Positions 5,232 through 64,000 of a DNA stretch of 64,000 nucleotides are shown here, one piece after another. How positions within the stretch are numbered: the stretch's first letter is position 1; each line of letters opens with the position of its first letter. A model generated the notes under the pieces. The model saw nothing but the letters and a program-made list of their open reading frames with translations. It searched no databases and was not told where the DNA came from. The stretch covers positions 1-64,000 of the forward strand of contig KZ538211.1 of the NCBI GenBank assembly GCA_000934665.2, written 5' to 3'. The position numbers and the translations under genes were made by a program. Source of the DNA: Catajapyx aquilonaris (Eukaryota).

Positions 5232-5309
5232 NNNNNNNNNNNNNNNNNNNNNNNNNNNNNNNNNNNNNNNNNNNNNNNNNNNNNNNNNNNNNNNNNNNNN
5301 NNNNNNNNN
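5232..5309. other. Assembly gap (78 N) between a G run and a C run
   Basis: Directly visible. Confidence 0.99.
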
Positions 5310-11021: not shown

Positions 11022-11554
<533 letters not shown>

Positions 11555-13822: not shown

Positions 13823-14094
13823 TCAGGCAGCTGCCTGCGTGGTGGGGCCGATGTTGGCCAGGCCCCCGGAGCCTCCTCCTCCTGAGCTCTGCTGTGAGCC
13901 CCCGCCGGATGCACCGGCCATGATGCCCGGTGCCCTGGGCCCCCCTGGGGTGGAGCTGGACCCTGGGTTGGTGGCCATGGGCGGAGAGGCGTAGGGGCAG
14001 CCCAGGAACTGGTCGGCGATCCTTCCCGCCTCGCGAAGACCGCTCAGGAAGGCCCCGTGAACAGTGGCCGGATAGTTCCGGATAGTATGCTCCC
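13823..14094 (-). CDS. KDM1A: LSD1/KDM1A terminal coding exon, 272 nt including TGA
   Basis: (G)[31 protein letters not shown] is the C-terminal FAD-binding motif, followed by a G/S/P-rich tail. Acceptor tttatag|GG; stop at 13825-13823. The four exons total 1001 nt and join in frame. Confidence 0.95.
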
Positions 14095-14559
14095 CTATAA
14101 ACATAAATTTAAATATTCACCCTCCCGTGTTAAGTCGAGTGGGTCCCAACAAAAGCCTTATAATGAAGTCCCTTCCCCAAAACACACACTCTAAATATAT
14201 ATAAAAAAAGCCTTAAACAAATTCCTTAATTCCCTTTTCAATTTTTCATGCCAAGAGGATGGGGGGAGGCTCCAAATCTTTTCGTCGCCTGCAGCCAACC
14301 AAACCCCAGGTCGATTCATTAAACATGTCAAATAAAAAAGCAAAGGGGATGGTGGAGGGGGAAGGAAGGAAGCTGTCTTAGCATGGACAAATTGTAATCT
14401 GATTTCAAGCCCTTTAGGTAAAAAAGAAAGAAAAAAAAAAACAGCTCTAATGCAATAACTCAGCCCGTGACGTGAGGGTAGGCTACACTCGAATCATCAT
14501 TTCCGTCCCCTTATCGCGGTTTCAGAATGTTCTTTGGGTTGGGCTGAGACAAGACTGAC

Positions 14560-14898
14560 CTGCAAAGAAGAGTCGTGGGACGCATATTCCAGGCTGGGGC
14601 TGTCCTGGGATGGACTGTGGGGTGACGGGAGCGGCCAGGATGTCGTAGTCGTTCCCTGAGGAGCCCACGGCCACGAAGGAATAGGACCCTCTCGACCAGG
14701 GGTCAGCCCTCCACCGGGTGACCACCGTCTCCTTGGGCTGTGGCACGGCGCTGTTTCCGAAGATTCCCTTGAGCACGGCGATGCAACGGCCGACGATCAC
14801 GTCGTCGCTGACGTTCTCCATGATGGCGGCAGCCTCTCCGGCCACCAGGGCCAGCAAAACAGGCGCCTTGTACAGGTTCCAGAACAGGAACAGCTCCC
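14560..14898 (-). CDS. KDM1A: LSD1/KDM1A exon, 339 nt
   Basis: (G)[93 protein letters not shown]...PRLFFA(G). Acceptor cattttcag|GG; donor GCAG|gtcagt. Confidence 0.96.
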
Positions 14899-15807
14899 CT
14901 GAAAATGGCGAGGGGGGGCAGACACCATGTAATGAGCATTGCCGCGGCTTGCAAGCATCAAGTACGCTGGATGGCTCCGACCGGTGGCAGGATCAACATT
15001 CCCGCGCTCAAAATTCGCATTTAAATGTACGGAAATTACGCCTGGCCAACCGTCGTCCTTCGCTAAATAAACCCCCTGCCTGATGTGTTATTCTCATGCC
15101 CCTGCTGCTCTCTCTACTAATTCCTAGTTCATCCATGCTTCCGCTTGCTGTCACGGTAGGTGCGTGTCGATATATGTATGTTTTTAAAATAAATTGTCCC
15201 GATATCTGCGCCAAATCTACCAAAATGATCTACAAAAATAATATTGCGGAAGGGAAAGTATATGCAAACCATGTTATGTAAGTTATAGTGCGGATGCGCC
15301 ATGTTTTTGCTCCGGAAGTGATATATACGTTGGAAAAAAATAATTAAAAAAGCCCGCCTTTTGATCCGGAGTGTTTGTTCATTTGTTATTTACACTGTTT
15401 CCTCTCTCCTCTGTATCTCTCTTTTTTTCCAGTCTCCCGATTGCGCGCGTAGTATATAGTATAGGCTGATGGTGCTGTTGCTGGTTTGATGGTGTCCTGG
15501 CGCTTTGCATGCGTTAAACTAATGCCGCCTCGCAGGCTGGGTGCACAAAGCGCAGGCCCCGTGTGCACAATCCATTGGAGAGCAGCACAACCATTTCGCA
15601 TTGAAGTTTGCACTACGGGCTCTATTTCCGCCAAACAAATAATTCCGGCTGTTTGCACACAGATCACGTCGGCTCTTTGCACACGGCCCGCCCGCAGTTA
15701 CCTACTGCATTGTTCCCCGCTTAATGCACTTATGGGGCCCCAGCATCCGTGTGTAATTTCGTTGCATTATTTCTTTTCGGGCGGGGGTGGCTCCCTCGGA
15801 AATTTAT

Positions 15808-15913
15808 TTCCTCGGTAGGTGGAGCCACCCTCGCTCAGTAATAACCACTTTCTTTTGGCAGATGGCGCCACCCTCGCTCTGTAAATGTTAGTTTCCTAGG
15901 CAGATGGCGCCAC
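15808..15913 (+). promoter_or_regulatory. Three tandem CTCF-like motifs in a degenerate ~42-43-bp repeat
   Basis: AGGTGGAGCCAC (15817), AGATGGCGCCAC (15860) and AGATGGCGCCAC (15902), all in the same orientation. The first two share the flank cctcgctc(a/t)gtaa. They match the AG(A/G)TGGCGC core of CTCF sites. Confidence 0.55.
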
Positions 15914-15924
15914 AACACACGCAC

Positions 15925-16161
15925 CTCGGCTGGCAGTGGTGCTTCCGACGTGTCCGAAGAGGTTGGCATTGGGATCCCAGAAGATGCGGTCGAAGCAGAG
16001 GACCACCTTGTTCAGGTTGCCGAATCCCAGCCGCTGCACGGAGGCCACCTTCCACTCGGGCAAGGGTGGCACAAACTGGACGGTGTTGGGCAGGCCCTGG
16101 GCACCGGAGGCCGTGGCCTGCTTCAGGACACCCAAGGGCAGGGTGCACAGCACCGCGTCAC
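15925..16161 (-). CDS. KDM1A: LSD1/KDM1A exon, 237 nt, amine-oxidase domain including the catalytic Lys (human K661 motif)
   Basis: (G)[14 protein letters not shown]...[52 protein letters not shown](G). Acceptor ttttcag|GT after a 78-nt intron (16162-16239); donor CGAG|gtgcgt. Confidence 0.96.
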
Positions 16162-16239
16162 CTGAAAACGGGGCAGACAAACGGTGGGGTCAGTTTCATG
16201 GGATGAATAATCCGGAATACCTGCACTGGGGCAACTGAC

Positions 16240-16392
16240 CTTTGTAAGTGGAAGGGTTCCCGTGGTTCCTGGAGTTCGATGTGAGGACTTCGATGCCGTT
16301 GGGCCCGTAGCGGATCTGTCGTACGGCGGTGTTCAGCTTGATGTCCAGTCCCTCGGACAGCGATACGGGGACGCAGGAGTACCCGTTGCGAA
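16240..16392 (-). CDS. KDM1A: Lysine-specific histone demethylase 1A (LSD1; Drosophila Su(var)3-3), most 5' exon in the window, 153 nt; gene is partial, upstream exons not found
   Basis: Translates (V)[50 protein letters not shown](G), matching the LSD1 amine-oxidase segment [21 protein letters not shown]. Acceptor tttttgtttgtcccctcgacag|TT; donor AAAG|gtcagt; phase 1 at both ends. Confidence 0.93.
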
Positions 16393-34931: not shown

Positions 34932-37900
34932 CTCCTATATGACAGGATTGTGTCGTATACGTATCCTCGTTTGGAAAGTGTTTCGACAGGTTATTCTCTC
35001 AGTGGGCAGAAGAAGGATAAGCGAGGAACTGGAAGGTAGTGTGGGGCCCGGTTGCTTCTCCAGGCCGCTCTCTCCGCATCCCGGCGACATCTCTGGATGG
35101 CCAGCCAAACCTCCCCGGCTCTTTTCCCTACTCCGCCCTTTTCAATTGAATCATGCCGCCATCCCCAAACATGTAGGGTCCAGGAGTTGGATTATTGTCG
35201 GCTGTGCTGCCAATTCCCGCACGGTTTGCGGTGGTATGCCAAGCCAATATGTGCCGTACGCATTTTAAAATCGCGCGCACACCGGGGAAAAAAGCGGTAG
35301 ATAGAAAAAGCCGAGAGAGTTATGCTGTACTTATGCAACCGAGCGACGCAACGGCGCCGCCTCGTTAATCTCCTCACGTGCCGTGCGACTCTGCACAGCC
35401 ATTAATTCCGGGCAGAGTTCGGGCCCCTCCCAAAAATACGGTTTGCCGCGAAATTTGTACCAATTTGGGTTTGCACTGCGGAATAACAAACGAGCCTCTA
35501 ACATATGCTACCTGTCTGCAGGACCTGCAGCTCTTACAGGCCAGGGGAGGCCCGCTCTCCTAAATTCAGATTTAATGGCCCTGTTCCGATTCCATATTTT
35601 TGGCTTGCACTTTGGCCGCCCCCCGCTGCTGCACAATCTAGCCAAACCCTCGCACTTGTTGCAATGGCGCTGCACTGCCTACAGTACAAAAGATGCATAT
35701 GTAGCAGCTTAAAAATAATCAAACTTCCAAACTAATTTCTTCTTAGTCTGTTCGCTGGGGAAAACACTCGAACAATTTCCCCTCTATCTCCTCCTCCCAT
35801 TGTGAACTGGAACTGGCGCTGTGCACCACCTGGCACGGTGCTTCCAATACAGGGCAGAAGTAAGGGGTCATTTCCTGATCAATCTTTCACGCTTTGGGGG
35901 TTATCAGGTGGACGGAGGATAGCCAATATCTGAATGGCTTTGCGGACAACATGCAGGATGCAAGTGCATCAGCGTTATCGGCTGGCAATCCCCGATGCAG
36001 CAATCGAGCCACACCTGACTCGTAAAAGGGGGGGAAGCGCGCAAAGTAATGAACACAGGGGGGTTGAGGGGCGGGGGATATTTTCCCGGAGCCTGTCAGA
36101 TGCGAAAATTGGGAAATAAAACCAAAGTGTCGCGCGAGTCGAGTATTTTTGTGGGCTGGAGGGAGAGGGCCGAGGGAGTCCCAAAATGAGCGAGGCAGTG
36201 CCAGGTTAATGGAGACCAGGGGCCCGGAGAAAAGTCTAGGTCCTCCTCCCCTAATGAAAATTATCCCCAGACTTTCACACCGAGAGCGTTAATCTTTGGC
36301 CCGTCACTGCTGCGGCTTTTCCGGAATTCCTGAACGGCTCCCAAGCCGCCCCCGGGCACATATGTATACCGACGGAATGGGGGGAGAGATGTCCGCTGGG
36401 TTTTTCCTCCGCTCCATTTGCAGCTGGGATGCTTGGCTTCCGGATTCTGCATAGTGCATGGGATTCTCTGATAGGCAGGCAGGCATCCCACCTTTTGGCC
36501 CGGACGCTGATCCACCGTTACCATTTCACGCACGTCACTTTCCGCCGAATCATCACTCCCAAAGATAGCATTTCACACTCGGACCACTAGGAAGAAAAAA
36601 AAAGATACAAAAGAAGGGAAGGCTGGGGGAGAGAAAATCCGTGGGCTGAAGCACACTACACTTTTGTTCCACTCTCATTGATGCGGTTTCGCAACACCTG
36701 GCCCTCCCCGTGTCAATCTCCCGGAGAAGGCCGAGCTGCCATTGCAAATGTGTGCCTGCGGAGGTAATATACCGTGGACCCCGCTGCCTTTTATCCTGGA
36801 CGGGAGCGGATCATGTGCGGCTCTAACGCGTTGCGGGACTCCCTGCCCCGCAGGATACTGCCCAATATCCGCTCTAATCGCGTCAAGAGCGCCTAGCAGC
36901 ACACAAGAGGAGAGGCCTGCTGCACCTTTCTGTTCAGGTTCACTCAACCACTCCATCCCAGCTTCACCAAAATAATTCACGACTGCAGCACTTGCAAAAG
37001 ACAGACCAGAAAGTTACGGGGGAGCTGGCACCAGCGAACACCTTAATTTGCGTCCGTATACAACCGGGCCTAAGCAGCGTATGCCCAATAAAATATCCAA
37101 GTTATGCCGACAGTTTTGACTCCGAGGGAAGGTTCAGTTAGACCCAGCCGGATACGATAAGTGTAAGTAACGGTGAATTTGGGAGCAGCAGCTAGAGTGT
37201 AAAATAGCGAGCCTTCATTACGGCAGGAGTGTGAGCAGCAGCAGCATCCATGGGGTATATAAAGGGACGAGAGGTTTAAAGAGGGATGTCAACACCTTCC
37301 GGGACCGGTTTGATAAGGACTCCTTTTTCGAAAGGGGGGTAGAAGCTTATAGAACTATAGAGGAACACAACAGGAGAGCGGCCCTTATCGGCCCTTTAGG
37401 TCTTAAGTGCATTTTAATGCTCTTTTCACGGCCTATTGGATCAGTTCGGTTCCGATAAGACCGATCGGCAGCATGGGACTCCATCCCGATGCAATATGAC
37501 GAAAAAAGAGGGGGGGGGGGGGGGNTGACCTCAGTGCCGGGCGTTTATTAATTATTGGTGTGTATATGGCGAGTGAAAACGGTCGTTTTGAGCGGCCAGA
37601 TATGTATCCGGCAGTTTGCTGGGAACCGATCAAGCACTTGCGAATGACGTTTTTAGTGCACCGGTCGGGCGGCTATTTACGCCCGGCATAACTCCCGGGG
37701 CCAGCCAGCAACCAGCTTAATAATCCATCCGGAAAGCACCCCCCCCCTCCATAAACGATACACCCGTTTCCCATCGGGTTCGACCGATTTGATAACATTT
37801 CCCCCGGTCCGCACATAACAGCGGGCCGAATAACTTGTTAAAAGCCGCGGGCGCATCGTATAAAGTTTGGGTCGGCCGACAGCTATACGGGCTGGCCCGG

Positions 37901-43300: not shown

Positions 43301-46300
43301 GAGATGAGGCCGGCCTCTGCTGAGCTGCTGGAGGGGTTTTGACTCCGGGGCGAGAATCGGGGGCAGCCCCCGGTGCTCCCTACTCTTTCTCTTATCTGTG
43401 CAGTGTCCCGGCTGTCAAGGCGTGACTGGACCCTGCTCTTGTGAGCCTGATGCGCATCGCACGAACCGCAACTTTTGTGCCGGGGCCCGCCAACAATCCC
43501 CCGTGTGCTGGCCCCCATTGACCCCTCTCCCCTGGGCGGCGGGGCTGCTTTTTCCACAGGAAAACCGGAGGCCAACGCTGCTGCTGCTGCGATATCTGAA
43601 GTCTCATTTTGCCAACCGCATGACGCGTATTAATCTCATCTGCTCCCACACTGTATAATCACGCCCACTGAGAGCAGCTTCTTATGATGCTCGATACAGC
43701 CTCCCATAAACAGCGGGGATGGAATAAGGAGGGGTGCAGGCTATTGTTGCGGACGTAACTGTGCTTCGGGCCCACTATTAAGATTCGGACCCTCTTTTGC
43801 CGGATGCAAAACTGGCTAAATTTCGTGCTCTGACTCGCGGAGCACACCCAGTGGCAGCGGCGACGTGTCGTGCAGGCATGCAGATCAATGTCATACATTC
43901 TGGAAGAATTTCGGTACAAGCTACATACGCGCATAACAATCTGGGTATAAATCGCAAGAATCTGAAAGAATCTTGCACATGCGGAAGAAATAACGTTGGG
44001 GCGGGGGTCTGGATAGTGTGTGGTCAAAGTGTGCCGGCAGAGCTTGCATGTTGGGATCATCGAACCCTGTCTGGTGCCGAACCTTCTTTCCATTAGTTTG
44101 GATCAGATTGAAAGGGCCTTGCGGGCAATCTCAAATCGACACGTGCTTCTGGGAGCGATCAAAGTGGCTGATCATCCGGAGCTAGGAGAATCAAGGAGTC
44201 CAGAGAGCTCTCTATATAATCACTCAGGTCCCACGGAATGCAAGGGCTGCCAAAACTGATTGCCGCCGCTGCATCTCTCCCAAAGGAAAAAAAAACACGC
44301 GCAAATTTGCTTGGCGCAAAGGAAATAGCTGCATCCAATTACATGGACCTTAGTCCTAGGTGGCGCAATTAAGTCCGTGGCAGTCCACTTCCTGCCTTTT
44401 GTTCGGAATTTCCAGGGCTGTCAAGGGCCGCCTCACACAAATATGTCAGGAGCGCTTTTCACGACTTGATGACGCATTCCGCAAAAATCACGCACCCGGC
44501 TAACAAGACGGATCCATGCTGCAAAACCCTGGAATTTTGCACGTACCCGCTTGCTTGCTTGCTTGCTGGGAGCAAAGCTGCCAAAGCAAAGATGACGCGT
44601 CCAATATCGACCACGGAGCCACTATTTTCCTCCAAGACGTGCCCAGATCTGATTGCATCCGGCGCCTCTCCCCTTATACCGATGATGGCATGTAGGCTTC
44701 CAAATCCCGTGAACAAACTCATCCGGCTCTGGTGATAGTGATAGATTTCATCACCCGTATATTTTTCCTCCCCTCAGACTTATAACTACTTGAGGGGGTC
44801 TCCCTTCATCGAGAGGGAAATAAAATCGCCAATTGGATCGGAAAAGTCTCTCCGCTTTTCCCCCACACATTCTCCCCGCTATCTTTCTCCCTCCTCTCGC
44901 CGCTTCCAATCCAATTTCAATATCAGCTCTGTCCATTATTGATTCCAGCCACCAATAAGCTCCTCCGCACAAAAACCAGCCCTCTTTCAGGCCACTCCAA
45001 AGTATCCCAAACAAAAGAGACAAAACTCCAGTTCGGATAAGTTTTCAAGATTTTTTTTTTTCTCTCTCTCTCTCTAGCTCTCTGGTGTGCCGCTCCTCTT
45101 CACCCGGGGTTCCCTTCCAATTAGTGAATGAAATGATGCCGAGTAATGTGACGCACTTTGAAGCTCCAAGACCGACTGGGCCTCACACACACACACATCG
45201 AGCGAACGAGAGAGATAAAAAATGATATTGGCAGTGAGCGTTGGGGTAGGTTTGTCAAAGAGAAGGAAGAGGAGGGTTTTGGCAGGGCTTTTGTGACGTC
45301 CTTTGAGCGCACAGGAGACAACCCCTCCTTCCGTTTGACACTGGAGAAGCCTCCTTTGTGCTGGGAGGGACCTTCTCTCACGGCGCCCCCTCCACCCTTA
45401 TACATCACATTATTGTTGCCCACTTCTCCCTCAATATTTGAGCAAACAAAAGACAATTTTCGCTAACGACCAGTTTGGAACTAAGGAGGTTTCGAGAGGA
45501 GGAGGAGGAGGAGTTGCGCGCAAGTTTGGAGTATAGGCTGCTGCTGCTTCAAAGGCGATTCTCTCTCCTGACCAAGCCGAAAGATGAAGTCCGAAATGAT
45601 GAGAGGTGGTCCGGTGAGGGGTCCACGTCCGAGCGATTGGATTCCAGCGGCATCATCATAGTAGAGCGATGAGGGGCAACCGTGCACGTCCTGGCTGGGC
45701 ATGCACGTGCGGCCCATTTTGTGGGGGCTCCGGAGAAGCCTCGGCCCCTTCTTGTGTCGCCACAAACGCCCGTCTTGACATGCCCATCTTTTACCGCAAG
45801 ACGAATGGCGACACGGACCCAATCACGCCCCTGCTGGTGTGCCCTACCCTTACGGCCCGCCCTGGGGTCAGCCATGACCCTGCTCCTGCCCCTTCTCACC
45901 CACCAGGTCTTGCCTACGCAACGAGGAACTCATTCGACTCGATGCGACTGCAGGAATTTACTGCAAAAAAAAGAGTATTCGGGCGTGCAAGGTGATCCCC
46001 AGCTAACCAGACCGGCAAACTTTTAGGACGTATTTCATGTGGGCACCAAGGATCATTTCATTCGTACAAGTGAGACCGCCGCGCCGACGCGACGCGACGC
46101 TCGTTACTATACTCGTCACCTGAAAAGTGAAGGATGAGTGGATTGAGTCTAAGGCAGCATATAGTGTCATGGCTTCTGCCTGCTAGTATAATCGCAGTTT
46201 AAATGAAAACTGTTAGGTAAGTTGTAAATACTGTATCAAAAAGGATGAGCGCACGGAGGGTTGGTTGCATACCGGCCAGGATATTTTCATGTCTGCGTTT

Positions 46301-49300: not shown

Positions 49301-49686
49301 TAACTGGTGGTACTGTAGTAATCAAATATATGATTGTGGTGTCTCAATTGTCACGGATACAGCCTATTATGCTTCAATCGCCTACTATTCTCCTCATATC
49401 GCAGTTTAAATTACGTAATCACACGGCATCTACATTAGATATGGAAATGTCAGGTTCGCGTGGAGGGGCGCATATCTGCCAGGATATCGTGCGCCTTGTG
49501 TTTGCAGCACCTTATCTCCATAACAAGGCTACGAAGACTGGCGTCGATGGGTTCATCCCGTATACGTCGGCCTGATTCATTATGAAACACCCTGTACACA
49601 CAGTCGTCACGGACATGGACTGGCTTCGAGGGTCTGAGGAAACATGGCCCTCCTTGCGTGTATACAGTACACACTGACGCACTCAC

Positions 49687-49785
49687 CGAGCTGACTCCAG
49701 CTGCGTGACGCAACCACAACAGAAGAAGGCTTACCTGCAAGTAGAGAGAGAAAAAAGAGTGAGTGAGTGAGGTGGGTTGTTAGAA
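49687..49785 (-). other. Candidate recursive splice site (AG|GT at 49735/49734) with a 48-nt cryptic exon (49734-49687)
   Basis: - strand reads ttCTAAC...ctcactcactcactcttttttctctctctacttgCAG|GTAAGcc...gctcg|GTGAGT. There is no AG between the branch-point motif and the acceptor. Confidence 0.65.
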
Positions 49786-52071
49786 CTCGCGAGTAATTAA
49801 TTTGCCAGTAAAGTACGGCACTTAATGTTTGGCAGCATGCTGACAATGTCAAGGCGGACACATTAGCAGGCGATTAAGCGGCGGCGAGCGGTCAGGGACT
49901 CCGGCGCAATTAGCCCCTTGTCGCCACCTGCGGCCAGGAAGCGGGGTCCGAACCAGCGTACCGGTACGTCCGAGGCCAGATGGGGGGGCCCCGGCGATCA
50001 TAACCCCTCGATAAATCTCCGGTGAATACTCCGGTGTGTGTATGGCAGGGGAGGGGGAACGGGGATGGTGTGGGGCTTTGTGAGCCAAGTGTTAAAACGC
50101 CGGCCCTCGCCCATCAACCTGCCATGGACCCTTTTGTTTCGCTAACGACACAACAACCACTCTGAACCGGCCGCCATTCTACCCCCCTCCCTTCTCTCCC
50201 CCTCTAAAAAAGACTTATGCATCTCCTGGCCTTAATTTGCACTTCAAGGTGAGCCTCCGACTTGGCCACTTGTCCGAGCCTCCTGCAGCGTTACTGTGCA
50301 TAAAAATGCACGCGGACACTACAATCTTGTCCGCCAGTCAATATGCCTAGTCATAACTTTGCGTACAAGCTACACCAATCCTCCGCGTAGATAACTCACA
50401 ATGTTTATTCAAGAGGGCCACCTACGTGTGTGTTATCTGCTCGTCTAGATTGGCCGCGTAATAACTTTCGAACTCAGCCTTTCCATTACCCCTACACTAC
50501 TGCACCGCCAACTGCAAACAAAAGAACGCAACTGGAAGCAAACCCAATAATTGCTCGCGTACTATAACAAAGCAAGTGATGTATGCCCTCGCTCCTCTAA
50601 AAAGGCTCAGGGCCTACGAGGGTTGCTTTTAACGAGTTGCAGCAGATAACACGTGCTCGAATAAGTGGCGATTTCATTTCAGACTGATAGCAGTCTACAT
50701 GACTTATTGCTTCCAGGACAAAAGTCATAATATGTTCAATGTACTGCGTGCTGTATCTAGAGAAAGGCACACAGATCACTTCTTAATTAGCTTCAACCTC
50801 GGGAGATATTCCATCATTTTTATTCAGTTGCCAGCAAACATAACCATTCACACTGAGTAAATCAACTGAGGCAGCATTTTAGAGATTCGAGGATTTCTGG
50901 AAGATTTGTGTATGGGCTGAAATCGGGATTTATGCAAGAGTACACGTTGGATTTACATGAAGTTGTTGCTTCCTCCTGAACAGTATTTTCCGAACCGCTT
51001 CATTTTTTTCATATTCGCCGATAAGATGGTGCACTATTGTGTTTACGTTTACCAAAATGCAAGTTACTCCATCTACTTTTTGCTTATAACATTTGGACTG
51101 ACAATCGCCTCCCGCGACCCCGACTTTGTGAACTTCTCGTCCTAAACTCGCACACTCATACCTCCTTGGAAATCTTGCTATGCAGCACACATCAGTGCGA
51201 ACGGGCCACAAAAAGTGAGTTGCGCAACAGCAACAAAGTCGGGCAATAATGGGTTAACAAACGTTCCCACCCCCATCCCGCGCCAGTTGGCCTGACACCG
51301 CCAAAAGACCGACATGCATCAAAAACAAACTCGGCAAAGTTGCCAGCGAGACCTGTTGCAGGAGTGAGAAAAATCATAAATAATCGCCGGAAAACATTTA
51401 ACATCCAGGAAAGGCCGGGGAGCTGCTGGAAAGAAGCTAATTGAGCATCGTGAGGACGACCACTTATTTCCAACCACCCTTCCGTCCACCACCCCCATCC
51501 AAATCACAAAAAGAAGAAGAAGGGAACCAGCACAGCTAAAAGGCCCTGATTAATGTCTAGTGATTTTGTCCAATTAAGTTGGAACCACGACCAAGACTGC
51601 GCTTCTGCACACCGCGTCTTTGTTGCCTCGTCTGACTAGACGCGCCGGAAGACAGACAGCTCAGATACACACAGGCACACACACACACTAAAAAATCCAG
51701 AGATAAAGTCAACTCTCACCCCCCGAGGGATTCAAGAAATTTTCGGGTAGTCGAAGGTTCCTTGGACCGTAAAAAAATAAATAAAGAATCTCTTGGAACT
51801 CGAATGAAGTCTGCATGATTTACTCGCGTTAACGTCAAGTGGGTTATTGTTATGGTTATTAGAGCATGCTTGGCAAGCCGTGGCTCGGGGTGACCTCAGG
51901 ATGCCAGGATGCCACGTCTTTTCAAGGTGCCGGGGTTGCCATTCAATTTGCAACCGAATCAAAAACCTGCTTTCCACCATCATGGTGGTGGGGAAGGAAG
52001 GCCCCTCCAACACAACACAAAAAATTTAAAGTCCGATTTGTAGCACATTTCCCGTCCGGCATTGCGGATAT

Positions 52072-52073
<2 letters not shown>

Positions 52074-52102
<29 letters not shown>
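52074..52102. repeat. (AC)14 microsatellite
   Basis: Directly visible. Confidence 0.95.
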
Positions 52103-52104
<2 letters not shown>

Positions 52105-52979
52105 CCTCCTTAATCAATCCCCCCCTCCAGGAGTAGTATCAGGGCTCGTTAAAACAGACCTCAATCTGAGATGGTGGGCCATAAAACATTAATTTGTATC
52201 AGTCAGGCGAGATTATCATCCAGCGCGGGACACAGCCATGTAAAACAATCGAAGCTGCTTATTTATTTTTCAGGATAGGTATCAGGAATGTCCAGTCCAG
52301 GATGTAATTGGGCCGCGGGGAGATATCTTCACTCGGTCATCTCTCCTCCCCCGTCCAGATTGGACAATATCCCCCCCGAGATCCAAGGACATGTTTTACG
52401 GCCAAAAAGGAGCTCCGAGTTAATTACGCTGACTTTGATGAAGGGACGCTCTTTTTCCAGCCCGGCGCTGACCAGTCCCTGCTGCCCCATCCCCCACAAA
52501 TATATATTTTTTTTGTTGAGAGAGCGGAGGTGATAGGAGTCAAAAAGCCAGGGCTTCGCGTGACTCCATTTATGAAAGTCCACTTCCTGGACGAGATAGA
52601 TTCGTCATTTGGTGGGATAATGAGAACTCGTGTGTCTGCTGCGTAACCCCCCCTCAAGACTGAGCAGGGGCTGAGGCTCCGACCGGGATGGAATGCAGGG
52701 ACAAACGAGGTGCGAAGAAATCCAGGGATGTCCGCGGGGTACACGTGTCCACGCCCTGGCCCAATCGATTTATTTTCACGCCCTTATCGCCGACAACTTC
52801 TCCAGTCAACAACAACAAAAAAACATACTGCCCGTTTTTTTGATCGCTAATGAGATGTTTATACAGCCGATTGTTTCAACTTTTCAATTCGCGGCTAACG
52901 ACGCTCACGAATGAAGAAGTGCTTGCTATACATACGTGTGATAAACACGGGGTTGATAAGCAATAAATCCTGGCCCCGC

Positions 52980-52993
52980 GTTGCCCCAGCAAC
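52980..52993. promoter_or_regulatory. RFX X-box GTTGCCCCAGCAAC
   Basis: Matches GTNRCC-N2-RGYAAC; lies ~9.4 kb upstream of the Toll ATG. Confidence 0.35.
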
Positions 52994-55900
52994 GCCTTTA
53001 TCCCCGGACACTCCTAACACTTCCTGGACGCGAGGCTCTAACGAGCATAAATCTTGGGGTCAACCAGAGCCAGCCATTAGGAAAACCTCGGCAAGTTTCC
53101 AAATCCTACCCCAACGCCTCCTGGTAGAAAATGCAGCCTGGCCTGTACCCCGTTCCCACTCTCTGTCTCCTAAGCCAACAAATAATCTTTTTCAATAAAA
53201 AAAAAACAGAAACCATCCGCGTTGCCTGCTTGAACGCATGCAATGTAGGTAAGTTGGCAGAGTTGAGCAAATAACGTGTCGTACCCGAGCATTCAAGTCG
53301 CCGGCATGTGGTACTGCCCTACTATAAAACGGCTTAAGAAAAACTGGCCTCGAAAAAAATATCATTGACTGATCCACATTCAGCAATAAATTGCTGGCCT
53401 TAAACCGATCAAACCTGTTCTCGAACATTCACTTCGCACACTAAGGAGATATCTGTACAATTAAGTTACTCCCAAGCATTGGAAAATAAAGGTTATGACG
53501 AGATTGAAAAGGAAGGTGGATAAGAAAGAAAGAAGTAGACAGGAGGGAGGGGGCTGTTGGAAAACAAACTGACCCAATACCACAAACTAGCCCATTACGT
53601 CTCCAAAAGCGAGAAAAACAAACCACTCGTTGGGGTGCAGTAAATCAGGGGTCCGGTTTTTCGGCGGGGGTATACAAAAACAGTAGAAAAAGAACGAAAA
53701 AGAGGTATCATTTTTTTCATCCCCCCCCCCCCCTCGCCAGCTCCTCTCATGCACCTTAGGGCCAGATGGGTGTTTTTCGGTTTTTCCAGCACAGAAGCTC
53801 CTGCCCTTGACACTGGCCTAAAGGAGTCCAAGCCCCTCTCAGGTGAGTGGGTGTCATGGAGACCTTCGCATCGTTCCATGGCTGCCTGGCACACTTGGAA
53901 ATAACCCAGCAGGGCTAAGATGCACAAAATTCACCTGGCATACACTGCCAATGACAAGTACGCAGGTAGTACTGTATTAAAGTACGGTGGATGTACATGG
54001 TCGGGGTGCATATTGTGGGGGAAGGGAGGGGGGACCCGACAACGAAGCGGCAACCATGGTTCTCCCTCCCCTTCCCACACCTGTCCGTCAAACTTCTCTT
54101 CCATATTACTTGATTTCCATCGCCCTTCTGATTCCAGGGAATTTGATTCGCTCCACTGACCTGCCATAATTTCCCTTTCCTCCTCAAGGGGGTGGAGGTG
54201 GGCAGCGCAACTGTTTCTAACAGAAAATTATTATTCTGTTGAACACGGTGCATGCACGCCTCGGCTGTCGAATAAAGAATAAAGAAAGAAAGAAAGAAAA
54301 AAAAATGCTTTTCCTCAATATGTTTTCTTCCCAAGAGTGTCCATCCAGCCAGAGAACAAAGCTCGGAACAAAGGTGGGAGATGGATATTTCTCGGACTCG
54401 TTGGAGCAGATAGAGCAGAGTTGTGGGCAGGTAAAAAGGTGGAGGTGATGGCGGTGGTGGTGAGGAGGTGGAGGAGGAGGCCACGACCGGTCTGCCCCCC
54501 GGCGGCAGGGCAACTAAGCACAATGCTGGGCCGAGGAAGGATTGCCCCGGGCGACAGGCAAGGGATACCTGCTGCAAGGGCGAAGGAAGCCACCCTTTGG
54601 GATTTGCTACCTATTCCTCAGCCCCCATTCAGAGAATAATTTGCCCATTTCCTAATGAAGCAAACCTCTCTCCGTGAAAAAAGGGTAATTCAATCACGTC
54701 TGTGCACTTGGCTCATTCCGCGCTTAACCGTGCAACTGGCACCGTTTAATTGCGGCCAATTATGACCTTAACGAGCTTTGTAAATGTCAGCGTCACATAC
54801 GCAAACAAAGGTTGTGCGTCACGCACCGGGAGATTCACGTGTCGGGGTCCAAACCACTGCCAACAGCCCAGAGATGCGTTACAGAATTTGCAGCAGTAAC
54901 ATTAAAAAAACTCAAACCTCAGAAAGCAAGGATTGGACAACAAAATCGGAAATGACCCCGGATCAGCTGGGGTCAGCTGATCTGATACCCCTCCAACCGC
55001 CTCCAACATTAAGGCACAGGTAAGCGTCCATAAGAACTAAAAGGTGGAGGACGGTCACACAAACACAGAGGGGCCGAGGCTCTAATGTGATAATGCATCA
55101 ATGCAAATGCAGGGTCATGACCCTGCCTTTTTTCCCCTCCCTCCCTCCCTCCTTCCCTCCCTGGTTATACGTAAAAATCCCCCCTGGCAAGCAGGCAAGC
55201 AAGCCAGGCACCAAATGCGATCCTTGCCCCTTCGCCCGTTCCAGTCGGTTGATGTTGGCAACCGTGTGGAGGAGGCGGGTTTGCCCTTGCTTGTTAGAGG
55301 AACCTGTGCAAGGGGCAGAGTTAGTCCGCGGCTCGCAACAACACAGGCTGGGTCGCGGCCACTGCTGCCAACAACAGCAACAATAACAACAACAACAAAG
55401 GCGAGGTGCAGACAGTGTGGCCGAGCTCTGGATATATTTTGCATGCGTGAGGAGGCTGCAACATGTGAGGGGGTGCAGGAGGCCGCCCCGGAAAGACATG
55501 GTGATGGTGGGCCCTCCGGATATTAGCGGCCATCGGAAAGGTGAAGGCCTCCAAAAAGGGAATAACGTGTGTTGGGAAGAAATAAAAGTGGCGTGGTGCA
55601 CTCGCGAGTGTGGGAAAAGGTGTGGCCGGCCATCAGTGCAGTGAAAGGCCGGGCCTTGCCAAGCAAGTGCGCTTTTTTTCGAAACAGTGCGGAGTTCCTT
55701 CCAGACCTTCACCCAAGGATTAGCTGGATTCAGAATATTATTACAGGTGAATTTAAGCATGGGGTTTAAGGCCATGGGCCTGGTTTGCAACACACATTCC
55801 ACCGGTTGCATTAGCACAAATTAAGCCAAATTTCCAGTTACGGATTCGCAATACGTAATCGGAGATGCGATACTAATTTGAGTTGACGCAACTGTGAAAT

Positions 55901-58900
55901 TCACTCAGCTTTCATATTTGCGCAGATTTGAAACGAATTAATTTAGTTTTGACGACGGATCAGGCTTAGGTCGAGTGGCCAGAATTGACCAACAGGACAA
56001 GAAACAAGTGGTGTGTAAGTGTGAAGGGCGGGGCGGATTTGTGTGTGTGCCAGTGTGAATGAATAAAATGCAATTTGGCGGCCTAGGCCCCGGTGTAGGA
56101 TCCCCGGCGAGAGCAGGGGGCTTTTGGGCCGACAGACACCTCGGGCTCCGGGTGCCATCAATCGTGAGGCCGGACGGAGAGACCCCGGGAGAAGGATCTA
56201 CCTTGACGCCCCTCTTGTCGTGCACAAATCGTGCGGATTCAAAACCCCCCAACTTGCCAACACCAGGCGGAATAATGAGAAAAGGGAGATGACGGCCAAA
56301 AACTCCCGGCCACATTGCGTCCAAAACGTCCAGAATTAATGCCCGATAATTCTAGAGTCACGCACTCGCTCTTCAACATTTTGCCAAGTTTCGCCTCCTT
56401 CCTTAGCCTCGGACTTTGAACTCGGTCTCATGTTTTCAGACCTAATAGGTGCAGAAGCGGATTTAAAAAAAGGAGAGCGGAGAAAATCCGTTTGTAACCG
56501 ATTATGAAACATGGCTGATTAAATGGAGATTACGGTTGCGGTATGCGAACATCATCGCGATTACTCGATTACGGCCAAACAAATTGGGCTTACACTAAAG
56601 GTCAATAGTAAGAGCACATTCTGCCAATTATATCGCAGCATTAAAAAAAAACCTGGACACTGAGCCGAGTAAATAACGGCAGGCTTGGTGCGAAATATTA
56701 CATCCTCTGATTAACGTTTTAGATGGTGTCAAGCTAAATTGAATTTCAATATTATTACTGATTCTTAATACTCGAGGCCAATTATTTGCAACTGCAACAT
56801 TTGTAACACGCAACTTAAAGCATAATTTAAGCTGTTCAAACCGGCAGCAGAGCTTACAGTGCACAACTGCACATGTCATTCACATCCAATGGCGCAGGGC
56901 ATGTAGTAACTTCATCCTTATCGCAATTAATTCGCACAGGCCGAACAATTTCGGGGTGTTTCTAATGACTCGCAAATGGCCACCAAGCACCGATATTAGC
57001 ATTAACTTCCAGTTATCTGATGCATAGGTTTCATCCGTCGAGGGCAAAATGTCATCGGACTCGGACTCGCAAAGCACAACTGTGCATATTCACGTAAAAC
57101 AAGCACGAAACGTGCATAACGGTGCAGCCTAACGTCAGCGAGACGCACATGCAACGCATAAATTTTCACATGAATACCGAGTTGGAGAGACAGATATATG
57201 GCAGGGCGAGGCGGATGTGTTCGGTCCTTCAGAGAGAAAAAAGTTGAAGCGAGTCTGTTTATAAACAAGTGATGGTGTACTTGCATGTGTTGGACCCACA
57301 TAACACGAGGCTTCACATATCCTATACACAGTGTTAAAAGATTATGGAGCTCGTTCGTTGGAAGGCCTCGACTCGCCCAGCATATGGCGCGAGGCTAGGC
57401 CTAATACTTCCCCGCACAAAATATATCGTTCTGGGGCGAAATCTACGCCCAACTTTGTTAATTGAGAATCATACATGGCGTTAGTTCTGGTGCACATGCT
57501 TTTAAATTACTGCACCATATGTTTAGCCTGTGTGTTTGGGATTGGTCAGAAAGTGGGTGGCACAGTTGCGGACACTCTCACAGACAGCAGTCCAAAGCTG
57601 ATTGAAAATGTCCGGGCCTTGCGACTTGAAACTACTTAGAGAATGTAGCACGTCATGAATGTTACTCATACACGTTATTGCTAGTTTTAATGCTATTTAA
57701 AAATGCTCGTCTAGAACGGCAATAAATACATGCGCGTAAAAATAAAATAGCGTAACAGTATTCAATCCCCTCCTCTGGCCCAGAATCTGCAAGAATATTT
57801 ATCAAGTGAGAAGCTGCTTCCTCGTCTGCTGGAGGTTTTTCATGCTAATCATGCATGCAAATATCCACCATCAATGAATAAAAATGAATGAAATCAAGCG
57901 CGCCTCTAAATCTGCCACTTACACGAATGGTTTTTTAGCGTACACTTTCCAATAATTGAAGGTTGGACGGTTTTTAAAAATCCCTGCACTTTTGATACTT
58001 TCGCCGAGATATGCCAGAAAAAGGGGTGCAGTTCAGTGATGCTAGAATGCGGGAAATTAGCTTCTTCCAAATTGGGACCGCTCACATTTTTGTAGCAAAG
58101 CTTTAACCCCAATCAAAGTTCCTCCGCTTTCCCAAATATGATTTTTGATGATTATTTTTTCCCATTCACTACTTCAACAGTAAGAAAAGGTGGACATTTT
58201 GATAGGCCTAATATTCCTCAACATAAAATAAACTTCGGACATGTGCAAAAATAGGTGGGAGTTTTTGAGGCAATGCGCCTATTTAAGGAGGCCTCCCAAG
58301 ACTTATCAGTAGCTCCTACCAAAAGAAGCAATTATATATTAACTGAATTCACGTATGATTCTGAAGTGCTCACATATCAATAGGTTACACAGTGGACCCG
58401 AAATAACGAGAGAACTCAGGGAATATGGAATTGCACGAATTTAACACCGGCGTCTACTATTTATTTATTTATTTATTTCAAGCAATGTCCGTGAACACAC
58501 CCAATAAAGTTTGCGACCCACAAAATTTGCAAACCGAATTCGTTGATGAATCATTCGCCCTCTCTGCATATTATTTTGATTTGCTCCCTTTGCCACCAGC
58601 ACACTATACCGTATGTATAATCAATCTCACACGGAATAAAAAAATATATGAACTGCCTAATTTGCCAATTGTGCTCGTTCAAATCCCTCACGATTAAATG
58701 TCCAAGACGTACCTAAGTCAAGCCGACAGGCCGCGCATCCTATTCAGTTCTATACCATAAACATTGAGTCATCTAGAGTGCCTGTCACCTGACCCCCATG
58801 TCCCCGAAAGTACAGAGTCGAACTGCTTGTCGAAAGCCATTGTCGTCGGAATCCGTCTTTCATTTTGCTAGTAACAAACGAGTTAGTTGCAGTATGAGAG

Positions 58901-59314
58901 GGGGTCTCTGCCAGAGATAATTTCCTGAGACCTGTGACCAGCATATAGGTGGTCATTTCGACATAGGAGACACCCAGTGAATAGCCTGTGGTGTGTACAT
59001 GAGCACCAGATAATAGAATGCAACGAGGTCTCCCCCCATTTTCCATTCCCGTTAGGGCAATAGGTTTAAAAGTGCATCAGTTGTGCAACAAGGCCAAGAG
59101 CTGTGGTGTGATGGCGGCTGGCCAGGGCTCTTGCATTTTTCCAAGACCGGCACACCTTAACAAGGAGGGAGCGAGAGAGAGGGAAAGATGGGATGGAGGG
59201 GAGGAGAGGGGTGAGTGGGGGCACAGGAGATGGGGTAGGGGGCGCCATAGGTGAGGAGATTCCCTCCCTGGGAAAGGTCACTCACATCGTTCCCGCTGGA
59301 ATCTCGTAGCAATG

Positions 59315-59347
<33 letters not shown>

Positions 59348-59372
59348 AGCTAGCAGGCAAGCAAGCAAGCAA
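59315..59372. repeat. Compound (AGCC)8 / (GCAA)4 microsatellite
   Basis: Directly visible. Confidence 0.9.
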
Positions 59373-62322
59373 GGCTGCCTTCGCTTTAGCCTTGCCTGCA
59401 CAGCCAGAAAAAGGTGGAGGAGGCTGAGAGATGCTGATGCTGGAGGTGCTTGCATAGCAGTCAAGAGAGATGGGGGTGGGATAGGAGAAGGGGGGCATCG
59501 GCGGCTCTCTTTCTTGGCAAGCGAAACGGATCTGGAGCCTACTTGGTGCTGCAGCAGCATCAGGCTTGGAGGCCGATGAAAGCACCATCACAGCCATTAT
59601 ATCACGTGACAGGGGCTCCCAGGCCCTGCTCTTCACCCATTTTTCATGCCTTCCGAATAACCGACTTCAACTTTTAATTGAAATATTTTCTCCGGGGACG
59701 GATTCTTCGCACCCGCCATGCTCATTCCTCTCTCGCCTGTCTCAAGGTAGGGGGTTCACAAGCATGCTGCAGGAATGGTTTTTTTTCTTTTCTTTTTTTC
59801 TCCACGCTTTTTGGCAGCGAGGTTCACCCAATTGGCTTACTACCACTCGCAGCTCGTACAGCTAGCCAATGGGGTGCTTCTCGCTGCCAAAAAGCGGGGC
59901 GAGAGCGAGTTTCTCACGAGATTGTGAACACCCTTTGATATTATTACGAATCAATTCCTTCCATTGCATAGGGAAAAAATTACGCCAAAATCCTACCCAT
60001 TTCGGTTAGGCCTACGTCCACCTCATACACGCAATATCGCAACGAGCTCGCGTAAATATAGTGATCTTTCTCATTGCCATGTTAACTGAATGGTCAGAAA
60101 CCGCAACGTATATTACGACTTGCCATATTAATACCACGAACAACGTAAAAAAAAGGCAATTCAAAATGATGTCATTTCCGACTGTATTATACATCCACTC
60201 TATAAATCGAATGCCTTTTAACCTATAGGTTTTGAAATGTATTTCAAGTACCGGTACGTAATATTGAAATAAACATATGGTTTAGCTGCGCTATATGATT
60301 ATTTATTGTGCAGATTATTTCCAATATTATCAGATGGAATAATGACGAGCAGTATTTTTATATTCGCCAGAATATCCGCACATGCAAGTTTGGAAATCAA
60401 TAATTTCTGCATTTATTTAAACCAGAATTGCAACATAAAGCACTAGTAATCATGCATAATTTGCATTTAAAATTTTGATGTTTACGGTATAGTGTCTCCA
60501 CATTATATAGCCGCATAAACTTTACATTTAATAAGTGTGCGAACTACGTTCGGTGGCAATTTTAATTTGAAAAATTGCAAATTCACGATATTCGAAACTA
60601 CGTTTTTGCAATTCCATAATCGATAATTGCTTGGCATACATTATTTGGAGTAACTATTGTTGAAAATTATCGGCTAAACCGATCCTTTGGTTAGCATCAT
60701 TTCTTGCAGTAGTTTACCCCGTGAATTAGTGTAAGTGAAGTTAAGGCAAGTCTTAATAAGCTATTGGGTTCCTAAATATCACATGACATGTCAGTAGTGC
60801 AACTGGCCACCATGTACTAAAGCGACCTAAAATCAACCGGATCGCATCACATATTAAGACCAGTGCAGATGAGCAGCAACGCAATTAATATACGTCCCAT
60901 CCTAGATGAGTTGTTTGGCCATGCCGGCTGCTTAAATGGGGGATAAATAAATCTGCCCCTCCTGTTATAAGTCTAAGCGCACGCAGGAGAATAACTCCAG
61001 CAACACGCAATTTTTTGACGCAATAAAAAAAATGAAATAGTGTGCAGCAGGATTTGACCCCGGTCTCCAGGGTTGGAATTAGCATAGAGAGGCGCCTGGT
61101 GGCTGGCAAATTGCGAGGATTTGTGCGATGCAACAGGCGACGAAGAAGTTTTGCTTCCTAGACACTCCCAACACATTACAGCTTAAGGGAGGAGGTGTGC
61201 GTGCGTGAGTATATATATCTCTGCGAGCAAGCCAATCAATTTAGTCCAGATGCCATTAGTTACGTCTTCCGATAAAAACCGGCCCCTCTCCCCGCTCCGC
61301 CACCTTTCCCAACTTCCCTCTTCTCAATTTGCACGTGTGTGTGTGTGTGGTACTTTATGATGTTCTTGAGGTAATCCATTGGCGTGGAGGATGAAGCTGT
61401 AGGACGGCACATTCCTCTTCCCCGCACCCTTTCCACGGGTCGCACACAAATCCATCCATTGGATAAGTCACGCCCGTTATATCAGGCTTCCCTATAACGA
61501 ATATGCCTTACGTGACTGGCGACTTGTGAATGGCTCTCCCCCTCGCCAGCAGCTATACACATGCTGCAGTATACACTAGCTGGCTGCCCCTTTCCAGACG
61601 CAGGCAGCACTTGGACCAATTAACGCGGGGGCCTAAAACACATTAGTCTGAATTACGGCTCAGGCAGCATTCGCCCAATAAGCAAATCTTCTTTTGGCAC
61701 GGCGGCCATGCAAATCGAGGAGGGTAGGTGGAATTAAATCGGGATTTTTTCCCCTCTAAAAAAGGAGACTATTGGAGATTGTTTTTCAGGAGGCCCTAGA
61801 GGCACACGAGGCAGAAAACGGACGCACATTGCTCCATACGTCCCTTAATTATGGCGTTAATTAGTGGCACAGCTGCATTCGCTGGCAAGAAGTTTGAATT
61901 GATAGCGAGAGCAGACTCTAAACGACGCGAGGCAAACGGAAAATGATTTCAAATCGGGAGCCAAGTTGGCGTCCGTCTCAACATTAGCTGTAGTCAAGAT
62001 AACGTTTAATGGGTGCTGCACTGCCTAAATCCAAAGCCGAAGAGAATGGAGGATAAGATACATAAAATAATGTATAGAGAGTAACTTTCCTTCCATCCTA
62101 CTCGGCTTTGGATTTGGGCAATGGAAATGCTTTCAATATGAGAATGTGTCGATTATTATTTCATCCCTGCAATGACACCCCTAATGGACAGATGATCCTA
62201 ATCAGGCAATGCTGCTTGTAGCTCTTCTTATATTGGCTGATTTGCATGATATGCCCAACGGGGGTGTCACAGTTGAACGTCCTTGAACTTGTGTGATCAG
62301 AAACTAGTATTAAAATAATAAT

Positions 62323-62353
62323 GCGTGTTTTGTGTTTGGTGTGCGTGTTGCAG
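62323..62353 (+). promoter_or_regulatory. Probable splice acceptor of a 5' UTR intron of the Toll gene
   Basis: gcgtgttttgtgtttggtgtgcgtgttgcag|G lies 83 nt before the ATG, where AT-rich sequence switches to GC-rich sequence. Confidence 0.55.
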
Positions 62354-62363
62354 GGTTGGTGCA

Positions 62364-62440
62364 ATGGGACTGGTGCAGGGTTGCAGCTGATGGGCAGCAG
62401 CATCAGAGGCCGCACTGGCCCCGAGCATAGGAGGAGATGA
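62364..62440 (+). promoter_or_regulatory. Two chained uORFs in the Toll leader (62364-62390, 8 aa; 62390-62440, 16 aa)
   Basis: uORF1 MGLVQGCS* ends in TGATG, which starts uORF2 MGSSIRGRTGPEHRRR*. The uORF2 TGA overlaps the main start in ATGA. Confidence 0.55.
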
Positions 62441-64000
62441 AGCGGAGAGCGGCGGCGGCGGCGGCCCGAGTGCTGGCGGCCATCCTCGCCTGCCTGGTCG
62501 CCACTTCTTCTTCCTCCCCGTCCTCGGGGGGCTCCGCGCTGGAGGACTGCAGGTGGCTATCCAGCATCGACGTCGGGGTCGTCCGAGGCGCCGGTGCTGG
62601 GGGAGGTGGAGGAGGCGGAGGCGGAGGCGGTGGGGGCCTGGAGTGCCGGCTGAGAACCCTGCACGGCCACATCTCCAGCGCCAACCTGTCCTCGCAGCAG
62701 CATTACCAACAGTTCAGCGGTGTGGCCCTGTCCGAGCGCCTCTTCTCCCTCAGACTCGAGTGCAACGACCAGCTCTTCTTCGAGAGCTACCTGGAGGCAC
62801 GCACCTTCCGTGACCTGGTCCAGCTCCGACACCTTGACCTCGAGTACTGCAAGATCGCCCGTCTACCCTCGCAGGCCTTCCACTCCCTCACCTCCTTGAA
62901 GCACCTGTCCATCCGAACCCACAACACCGACTGGCCCGCCATCGCCCTCGAGGCAGACCCAGGAGCTTTCGACCAGCTGCTCAGCCTAGAGAGGTTGGAC
63001 CTCAGCTTCAACAACATCTGGACCTTGCCCGAGGACATCTTCTGCCCGCTCAGGAGTCTCCGGTACATCAACCTGACCCAGAACCGGCTCCAGGACATCG
63101 AGATGCTGGGATTCACCAGGGGGTCGCTGACCCCGGAGTGGAAGAGGTCGAACACCGGGTGCGGAAACAACATGAGGGTGCTGGACATGGGGTTCAACAG
63201 CCTAGAGACTGTTCCCCCGGAAGCCTTGGGAACACTGAGCCGCCTGGAGGAGCTGTACCTGGAGAACAATGTCATCTCCAGCCTTCCAGACAGGGCCCTG
63301 GTAGGACTCGAGTCCCTCAGGATCATCAATCTATCCGGGAACAAGCTAGTCAACCTGCCTCCCGAACTGTTCGAAGCCACGAGGGGCGTCAAGGAGATCC
63401 ACCTGCAGAACAATTCCCTTACGGTGCTGGCCCCGGGCCTGTTCGAGGGCCTGGACCAGCTCCTGGTGCTCGACCTGTCCAAAAACGAGCTGACCAGCGA
63501 GTGGGTCAATTCAGAGACCTTCAACGGCCTGCTCAGGCTGGTGGTTCTCAACCTGTCCCAAAACCGACTCTCCCGCCTAGACTCCGCCATATTCCGAAAC
63601 CTGTACAGCCTCCAAATCCTGAGACTAAACAACAACGAGATCAACAGCATAAGCGACAACTCCTTTGGTTCCATGAGCAACCTCCACACCTTGATCCTGT
63701 CCCACAACCAGCTGCTGACCGTGGACGCCAGCACCCTGAACGGCCTGCAGGTTCTGAGCCTCCTCTCCCTGGACAACAACGCCATCGAGTCCATCCATCC
63801 GATGGCTTTCCGGAACTGTTCCAACCTGCAGGATCTGAATCTGAGCGGGAACAACCTGTTCCAAGTCCCCGTGGCCCTGCAGGACCTGCAGCTTCTCAAG
63901 ACGCTGGACCTCGGGGAGAACCATATATCCAACGTGGAGAACGTCTCCTTTAGCCGCATGCAGCACCTGTACGGCCTACGACTCATTGACAACAGGATAG
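62437..64000 (+). CDS. Tollo: Long-LRR Toll receptor, Tollo/Toll-8-like (Toll-2/6/7/8 'Long Toll' group); N-terminal 521 codons, truncated by the window end
   Basis: My translation (absent from the ORF track because it has no stop in the window): signal peptide MKRRAAAAAARVLAAILACLVATSSS, Cys cap CRW...LECRLRTL, then LECNDQLFFES, LEYCKI, LSIRTHNTDWP, LDLSFNNIWTLPEDIFCPL, LTSEWVNSETFNGLLRLVVLNLS, LKTLDLGENHI, LYGLRLIDN with repeated LxxLxLxxN units. In-frame TAG 9 nt upstream of the ATG; no intron in 1.56 kb. Tollo versus Toll-6/7 is from motif recall; TM and TIR domains are not visible. Confidence 0.9.
   Translation, partial: MKRRAAAAAARVLAAILACLVATSSSSPSSGGSALEDCRWLSSIDVGVVRGAGAGGGGGGGGGGGGGLECRLRTLHGHISSANLSSQQHYQQFSGVALSERLFSLRLECNDQLFFESYLEARTFRDLVQLRHLDLEYCKIARLPSQAFHSLTSLKHLSIRTHNTDWPAIALEADPGAFDQLLSLERLDLSFNNIWTLPEDIFCPLRSLRYINLTQNRLQDIEMLGFTRGSLTPEWKRSNTGCGNNMRVLDMGFNSLETVPPEALGTLSRLEELYLENNVISSLPDRALVGLESLRIINLSGNKLVNLPPELFEATRGVKEIHLQNNSLTVLAPGLFEGLDQLLVLDLSKNELTSEWVNSETFNGLLRLVVLNLSQNRLSRLDSAIFRNLYSLQILRLNNNEINSISDNSFGSMSNLHTLILSHNQLLTVDASTLNGLQVLSLLSLDNNAIESIHPMAFRNCSNLQDLNLSGNNLFQVPVALQDLQLLKTLDLGENHISNVENVSFSRMQHLYGLRLIDNRI

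Follow-up and report, generated by a model that had tools for sequence, protein, structure and literature searches.

Recursive splice sites are an already well-known kind of element, and the sources available to us document recursive splicing at the RNA level in Drosophila, human, and mouse. In flies, as described in the article of Joseph & Lai (2021; PMC8605326), ratchet points are tandem acceptor/donor sites located on a cryptic RS-exon of ~50 nt that has its own donor, and when the two donors compete, the stronger one wins. The same article describes the cryptic RS-exons of flies as "generally out of frame", in contrast to the mI and mII exons of Ubx, which have 51 nt, keep the frame, and are expressed. 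The preprint of Duff et al. (10.1101/006163) reports that 43.8% of introns overall have TT at positions −5/−6, compared with 196/197 fly ratchet points, which also have a stronger pyrimidine tract. It gives recursive introns a length of 11.3–132.7 kb and their segments a length of 2.6–63.6 kb. Moreover, most fly introns longer than 40 kb have recursive sites in the data of Pai et al. (2018; PMC6110457). For arthropods beyond Drosophila, our literature search (PMC, bioRxiv) gave computational strand enrichment alone, namely the report of Shepard et al. (2009; PMC2773006) that RP sites are enriched on the sense strand in large introns of mosquito, honey bee, beetle, and sea urchin. A 2026 preprint (PMC13105047) is concerned with first-intron sequence features.

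In this study, we analysed a window of 64,000 nt from Catajapyx aquilonaris, that is, the whole stretch of DNA presented above. A preliminary description of this window had reported a CTAAC motif on the minus strand, followed by an AG-free tract, a CAG with GTAAG directly behind it, and a second donor 48 nt further on. On direct reading, all of these coordinates are right. The elements of the site are as follows.

49783–49779, minus strand: CTAAC branch-point-like motif, read directly, with the putative branch A at 49780
49738–49778, minus strand: AG-free pyrimidine-rich tract of 41 nt, with 18/20 pyrimidines just before the AG
49729–49737, minus strand: candidate ratchet point CAG/GTAAGC (a slash marks a splice junction), with the junction at 49735/49734 and GTAAGC at 49734–49729
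49687–49734, minus strand: candidate cryptic RS-exon of 48 nt, between the CAG acceptor and TCG/GTGAGT
49681–49686, minus strand: putative RS-exon donor TCG/GTGAGT, with GT at 49686

On the minus strand, the site reads ...gagttCTAACaacccacctcactcactcactcttttttctctctctacttgCAG/GTAAGCcttcttctgttgtggttgcgtcacgcagctggagtcagctcG/GTGAGTgc. CTAAC is a branch-point consensus, and the putative branch A at 49780 is located 45 nt upstream of the acceptor G. AG is absent from the whole stretch between CTAAC and the CAG at 49737–49735. The bases at −5/−6 are TT, and the junction reads cTTGCAG/GTAAGC. Within the tract, 15 nt belong to a microsatellite, (GAGT)n, which appears as (ACTC)n on the minus strand; apart from this repeat, the site region is single-copy within the window. 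The 11-mer core TTGCAGGTAAG occurs once in the window, with both strands counted. We compared the site with the fly table of recursive sites by substring counts in the supplement of PMC6110457. In table S1 of that paper, AGGT is counted 560 times, AGGTAAGC 43 times, AGGTAAGT 37 times, and AGGTGAGT 51 times, while the core TTGCAGGTAAG is found 38 times and the exact 13-mer CTTGCAGGTAAGC twice. By these counts, GTAAGC and GTAAGT have about the same frequency at fly recursive sites (43 vs 37; PMC6110457).

The 48-nt unit has further properties of interest. Read in intron phase 1, the RS-exon candidate gives G-KPSSVVVASRSWSQL, after which the Val codon is restored, so that it is in frame and stop-free. 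The GTGAGT of its donor agrees with the consensus at all six intronic positions. Compared with the regenerated donor GTAAGC, this RS-exon donor is not obviously weaker, and the two seem to be of similar strength. Since both are near consensus, skipping of the 48-nt RS-exon is not predictable from sequence. The bases at −2/−3 of the regenerated donor would come from the upstream LSD1 exon, which lies beyond the window.

The LSD1 gene is represented in the window by its C-terminal part (the last ~300 residues of LSD1/KDM1A), which was located on the minus strand by its amine-oxidase exon and by tblastn with six full-length LSD1 queries. Its exons and the presumed intron are listed below.

13823–16392, minus strand: last four LSD1 exons (16392–16240, 16161–15925, 14898–14560, and 14094–13826 plus the stop codon)
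16393–49686, minus strand: presumed downstream intron segment of 33,294 nt, which would be removed in a second step
49738–64000, minus strand: visible part of the presumed upstream intron segment, at least 14.3 kb, running past the window end

Together with one preceding G, the four exons form an unbroken C-terminal reading of 333 aa that starts with VRNGYSC. The nearest matches of the LSD1 exons are to horseshoe crab (93% over 83% of the query) and mayfly (89% over 98%). The exon at 16392 is preceded by a normal acceptor (...ttgtcccctcgacag/TT, junction 16393/16392) and its first two bases are the second and third positions of a Val codon. This start in the middle of a codon places the intron in phase 1, and the upstream exon should therefore end in G. 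No earlier LSD1 exon was detected by tblastn with the six full-length queries between 16.4 and 64 kb (47.6 kb). A match of residues 335–361 of P0044 to 49795–49718 had an E value of 2.4 in a low-complexity tract and was rejected as chance. Similarly, a weak match at 30968–30912, which recurred with five of the six queries (E = 1.8–8.2), was rejected as an LSD1 exon; in translation, it gives a GLGG.P-like peptide closely preceded by a stop codon.

It is plausible that the junction 49735/49734 lies inside this giant LSD1 intron, whose upstream exon would be located beyond the window. The preliminary description had spoken of a giant LSD1 intron, which receives independent, indirect support from the phase-1 acceptor, the 47.6 kb upstream in which no earlier LSD1 exon was found, and the insect gene models that break at this point, some of them neighbours of Tollo, as described below; the exon that would close the intron on its upstream side is outside the window. 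The value of ~33.3 kb given in that description for the distance to the next LSD1 exon agrees with the 33,342 nt that we measured to the first exon base at 16392. The description had gone on to take the site as evidence for a real intron. This is near-circular, and the only part of the argument that is independent is the occurrence of the motif on the LSD1 strand and its absence from the other strand.

Two features of the assembly are recorded here. On the plus strand, positions 11026–11552 form an uninterrupted T run of 527 nt (A527 when read on the LSD1 strand). The run is located ~2.3 kb downstream from the stop codon of LSD1, lacks an AATAAA immediately in front of it, and may be either a giant homopolymer or an artefact of the assembly. 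Ambiguous bases or assembly gaps comprise 78 N at 5232–5309 and single N at 37525 and 40399.

Based on these observations, the best explanation in our judgment is a Drosophila-type recursive site, consisting of a ratchet point and a short cryptic RS-exon, in a giant phase-1 intron (at least 47.6 kb) of an arthropod LSD1/KDM1A gene, and we hold this reading to be true with slightly better than even confidence. In the proposed mechanism, 49734–49687 would be defined as an exon while the polymerase transcribes the intron. Its boundaries would be the strong acceptor, formed by CTAAC, the long pyrimidine tract, and TTGCAG, and the donor G/GTGAGT. The upstream LSD1 exon, which should end in ...ACN G, would be ligated to 49734, and the first segment would leave as a lariat. 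This ligation would create a new 5′ splice site, G/GTAAGC, which would be used in place of the RS-exon donor and joined to the acceptor at 16393/16392. The second step would then remove the remaining 33.3 kb along with the 48 nt, and the mRNA would carry no trace of the site. Of the recursive-site reading in the preliminary description, every sequence-level element holds and agrees with the features of fly ratchet points, while stepwise removal of the intron is what we infer from them.

To assess the rarity of the site, we counted AGGTRAG cores in the window and required a tract with at least 15/20 pyrimidines and an AG-free zone. The minus strand has three AGGTRAG cores, and only the one at 49735/49734 has the tract (18/20 pyrimidines, AG-free); on the plus strand, 0/8 qualify. 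The preliminary description had called this the only strong AG/GTRAG with a full tract on the minus strand, which is borne out by these counts. A relaxed scan (at least 5/6 donor matches and at least 13/20 pyrimidines) passed the candidate site, one true LSD1 donor, and nothing else on the minus strand. On the plus strand, it passed six sites, and just one of these has a donor within 120 nt, at 118 nt. Across the 64 kb of the minus strand, GTRAGT occurs 11 times and GGTRAGT twice, the donor 48 nt past the site accounting for one of the latter two. Additionally, a metagenome scan with the 20-nt core gave a single match, L001 (34% GC), which has no similarity beyond the 20-mer and was set aside as a chance match.

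Separately, two more strong acceptor-like sites with TT at −5/−6 were observed on the minus strand, at 46120 and 18979. They have 17 and 20 of 20 pyrimidines and are followed by the weak donor-like sequences GTGACG and GTGATG, respectively. The plus strand of the window has no acceptor-like sites of this kind. The sites at 46120 and 18979 may be weaker recursive or cryptic acceptors.

Among the rival explanations, an unused chance decoy comes first, followed by an expressed exon and by a site of another transcript. According to the first, the juxtaposition would have arisen by chance in non-coding DNA that is either untranscribed on the minus strand or carries a decoy ignored by the spliceosome. 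We simulated 400 sequences of 64 kb for each of an order-1 and an order-4 Markov model and searched them for AGGTRAG with at least 16/20 pyrimidines and an AG-free zone. This core plus tract appears at least once in 6.5% (order-1) and 5.5% (order-4) of the simulated sequences, so that these two elements alone arise by chance in ~6% of simulated 64-kb strands, which speaks for this reading. Part of the tract is also a microsatellite, and the site was selected post hoc, solely on the basis of its sequence. In contrast, when a GTRAGT 20–120 nt downstream is added, the full composite appears in just 2/400 simulations (0.5%, order-1) and 0/400 (0%, order-4). Moreover, the site agrees with five separately published fly features, and it lies on the LSD1 strand, the other strand having no core that qualifies. 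We consider a chance decoy unlikely.

To compare the position of the intron among insects, we searched with the N-terminal 390 residues of mayfly LSD1 and limited the subjects to 214–683 aa. Since this length filter favours truncated models, the resulting counts should not be read as frequencies. In all, 119 proteins were listed, 95 of which contain a FEFTGSHLT-type motif, corresponding to the end of the upstream exon. Among these 95 insect and other arthropod models, 19 run on into VRNGYSC-like sequence, and the other 76 end just past FEFTGSHLT with an unrelated tail (median 17.5 aa). The first residue of the tail is G, V, D, E, or A in 74/76 models, as predicted by a phase-1 intron after G, and it is G in 48/76, as a read-through into GT... 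would give. In the C-terminal LSD1 model of Diploptera, VRNGYSC follows MFS, from residue 4 of 295. For annotators, this means that LSD1 gene models are split at the phase-1 intron (FEFTGSHLT / VRNGYSC) in many insect genomes.

A side observation concerns P0241 and P0245, both truncated LSD1 models and one of them Periplaneta isoform X1, which share a similar 34-aa tail after GSHLT (D.EL.HHF...). The resemblance may point to an alternative terminal exon that is conserved within their lineage. This tail has no match in the 64-kb window.

The same protein comparison bears on the second rival explanation, in which the 48 nt would be an expressed alternative LSD1 exon, either an ordinary cassette or an RS-exon of the Ubx mI/mII type. 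If the 48 nt were included via GTGAGT, LSD1 would gain 16 residues (GKPSSVVVASRSWSQL) at the junction of ...GSHLT with VRNGYSC.... The length of 48 nt is a multiple of three and open in phase 1, which sets the unit apart from most cryptic RS-exons of flies and agrees somewhat better with an expressed exon. It also has a strong downstream donor. The frame-preserving 51-nt RS-exons of fly Ubx are expressed, and the stronger donor wins, in the account of PMC8605326. However, being both in frame and open would be expected by chance with a probability of ~0.15 by our estimate, and an ordinary exon would start with GTAAG by chance in roughly a few cases in a thousand, also by estimate. Furthermore, all 19 of the read-through homologues, as well as the full-length P0002, pass from GSHLT to VRNGYSC-like sequence without the 16-residue insert. 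The insert would sit inside the conserved amine-oxidase core, at a position that we take to be next to a catalytic His, and a functional isoform therefore seems unlikely. Taken together, we regard expression of the 48 nt as an LSD1 exon as quite improbable.

Upstream of the site, the window contains the start of a second gene on the opposite strand.

62437–63999, plus strand: start of a Tollo/Toll-8-like gene, with a signal peptide and an LRR ectodomain, running past the window end

The N-terminus of this Tollo-like protein shares ~53% identity with insect Tollos and contains, not far behind the signal peptide, a run of 13 glycines, which lies within 62437–62700 on the plus strand. The visible part of the presumed upstream intron segment passes antisense through this gene start. 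The order in the window is thus the LSD1 C-terminal exons on the minus strand, 46 kb, and the Tollo-like gene on the plus strand, an arrangement that fits a Tollo gene nested in the LSD1 intron. In other insects, the locus tags of an LSD1 piece and of Tollo are L9F63_005433 and L9F63_005436 in Diploptera, LSTR008170 and LSTR008172 in Laodelphax, and GWI33_016385 and GWI33_016392 in Rhynchophorus, a tag distance of 2–7. LSD1 and Tollo are also found on contigs of identical size in Periplaneta, Bacillus rossius, Chrysoperla, Brassicogethes, Colias, and Anabrus. The proteins behind the observation of split LSD1 models and Tollo adjacency are P0007, P0123, P0150, P0198, P0255, and P0270. This pattern suggests that Tollo may have long been nested in the phase-1 LSD1 intron, with the other species judged from tag order alone. 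A literature search on the nesting of Tollo in LSD1 gave nothing relevant.

We also searched the intervening DNA for coding sequence. Pfam was run on 233 of 236 ORFs, after three had been dropped as low-complexity or N-containing. No match above the cut-off was obtained for the 93 ORFs of at least 70 aa in 44.4–61.5 kb or for the 140 ORFs of at least 70 aa in 17–44.7 kb, on both strands; one sub-threshold match in the latter region was to DDA1 (16.8 bits vs a cut-off of 24). Transposon domains were absent from the 233 ORFs of at least 70 aa, which cover ~45 kb at 17000–62400. Rfam gave 0 matches over the whole window.

These results bear on the third rival explanation, in which the splice sites would belong to a different minus-strand transcript, for example an unannotated non-coding RNA running upstream and antisense from the Tollo-like gene. 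The Tollo-like ATG (62437) is on the strand opposite to the site, which lies 12.7 kb upstream of it, and a same-strand GTGAGT at 50399, 664 nt upstream of the site, might serve a local exon as its donor. The position of the upstream LSD1 exon outside the window also leaves room for such a transcript. Against it, neither the 93 nor the 140 ORFs gave a Pfam match above the cut-off, and none was obtained from Rfam; in addition, another transcript would leave the GTAAG directly after the acceptor unexplained. We consider this origin improbable and place it behind the expressed exon. Finally, an alternative terminal exon giving a truncated LSD1 is not supported, since no polyadenylation hexamer (AATAAA/ATTAAA) is present within 2.5 kb downstream of the site and the insect tails are without a match in the window (39 truncated-model tails, tblastn; best E = 0.039, noise).

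Returning to the recursive site in the LSD1 intron, a more elaborate version can be imagined, in which the 48 nt would be a regulated recursive exon and not a silent ratchet point. Use of GTAAGC would yield the normal LSD1 enzyme, use of GTGAGT an isoform with 16 additional residues in the amine-oxidase core, and the choice between the two donors would act as a switch; the giant intron would have carried the opposite-strand Tollo since early insect evolution, and splicing of the host might be coupled to transcription of the nested gene. This is a speculation to which we give very little credence. If the recursive site itself is real, a close match to the fly consensus (the 11-mer TTGCAGGTAAG, TT at −5/−6, and an RS-exon of ~50 nt) in a distant arthropod would lend support to an old origin and a wide distribution of the fly-type mechanism among arthropods. 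If it is unused, the site would be merely a rare decoy.

Comparison with known systems places the candidate closest to the ratchet points of Drosophila (kuz, Bx, chinmo, and the Ubx RP). Like these, it has a (Y)n TTGCAG/GTAAG core, in this case with CAG directly joined to GTAAGC, a prominent tract (18/20) with TT at −5/−6, and a downstream donor that bounds a cryptic exon of ~50 nt (48 nt here). The presumed intron is longer than 40 kb, and the 33.3-kb segment is inside the fly range. Unlike the fly RS-exons, which are generally out of frame, the candidate RS-exon of 48 nt is in frame and stop-free in phase 1. The host is also a distant arthropod, in which the site is known from its sequence. 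The candidate thus has every sequence-level feature of fly ratchet points, bar the out-of-frame tendency.

The expressed recursive exons, namely Ubx mI/mII and the vertebrate RS-exons, are similar in being short and frame-preserving and in starting with a 5′ splice-site sequence, and in them either the regenerated donor or the donor of the exon itself can be used. In contrast, Ubx mI and mII are deeply conserved coding exons, and among the homologues examined here, none has an insert at the LSD1 position. Pseudo-exons or decoy pairs in long introns resemble the candidate in having a good acceptor and a good donor close together, deep in the intron. However, they need no 5′ splice-site sequence right after the AG, and the AG/GTAAG juxtaposition found here is specific to recursive sites.
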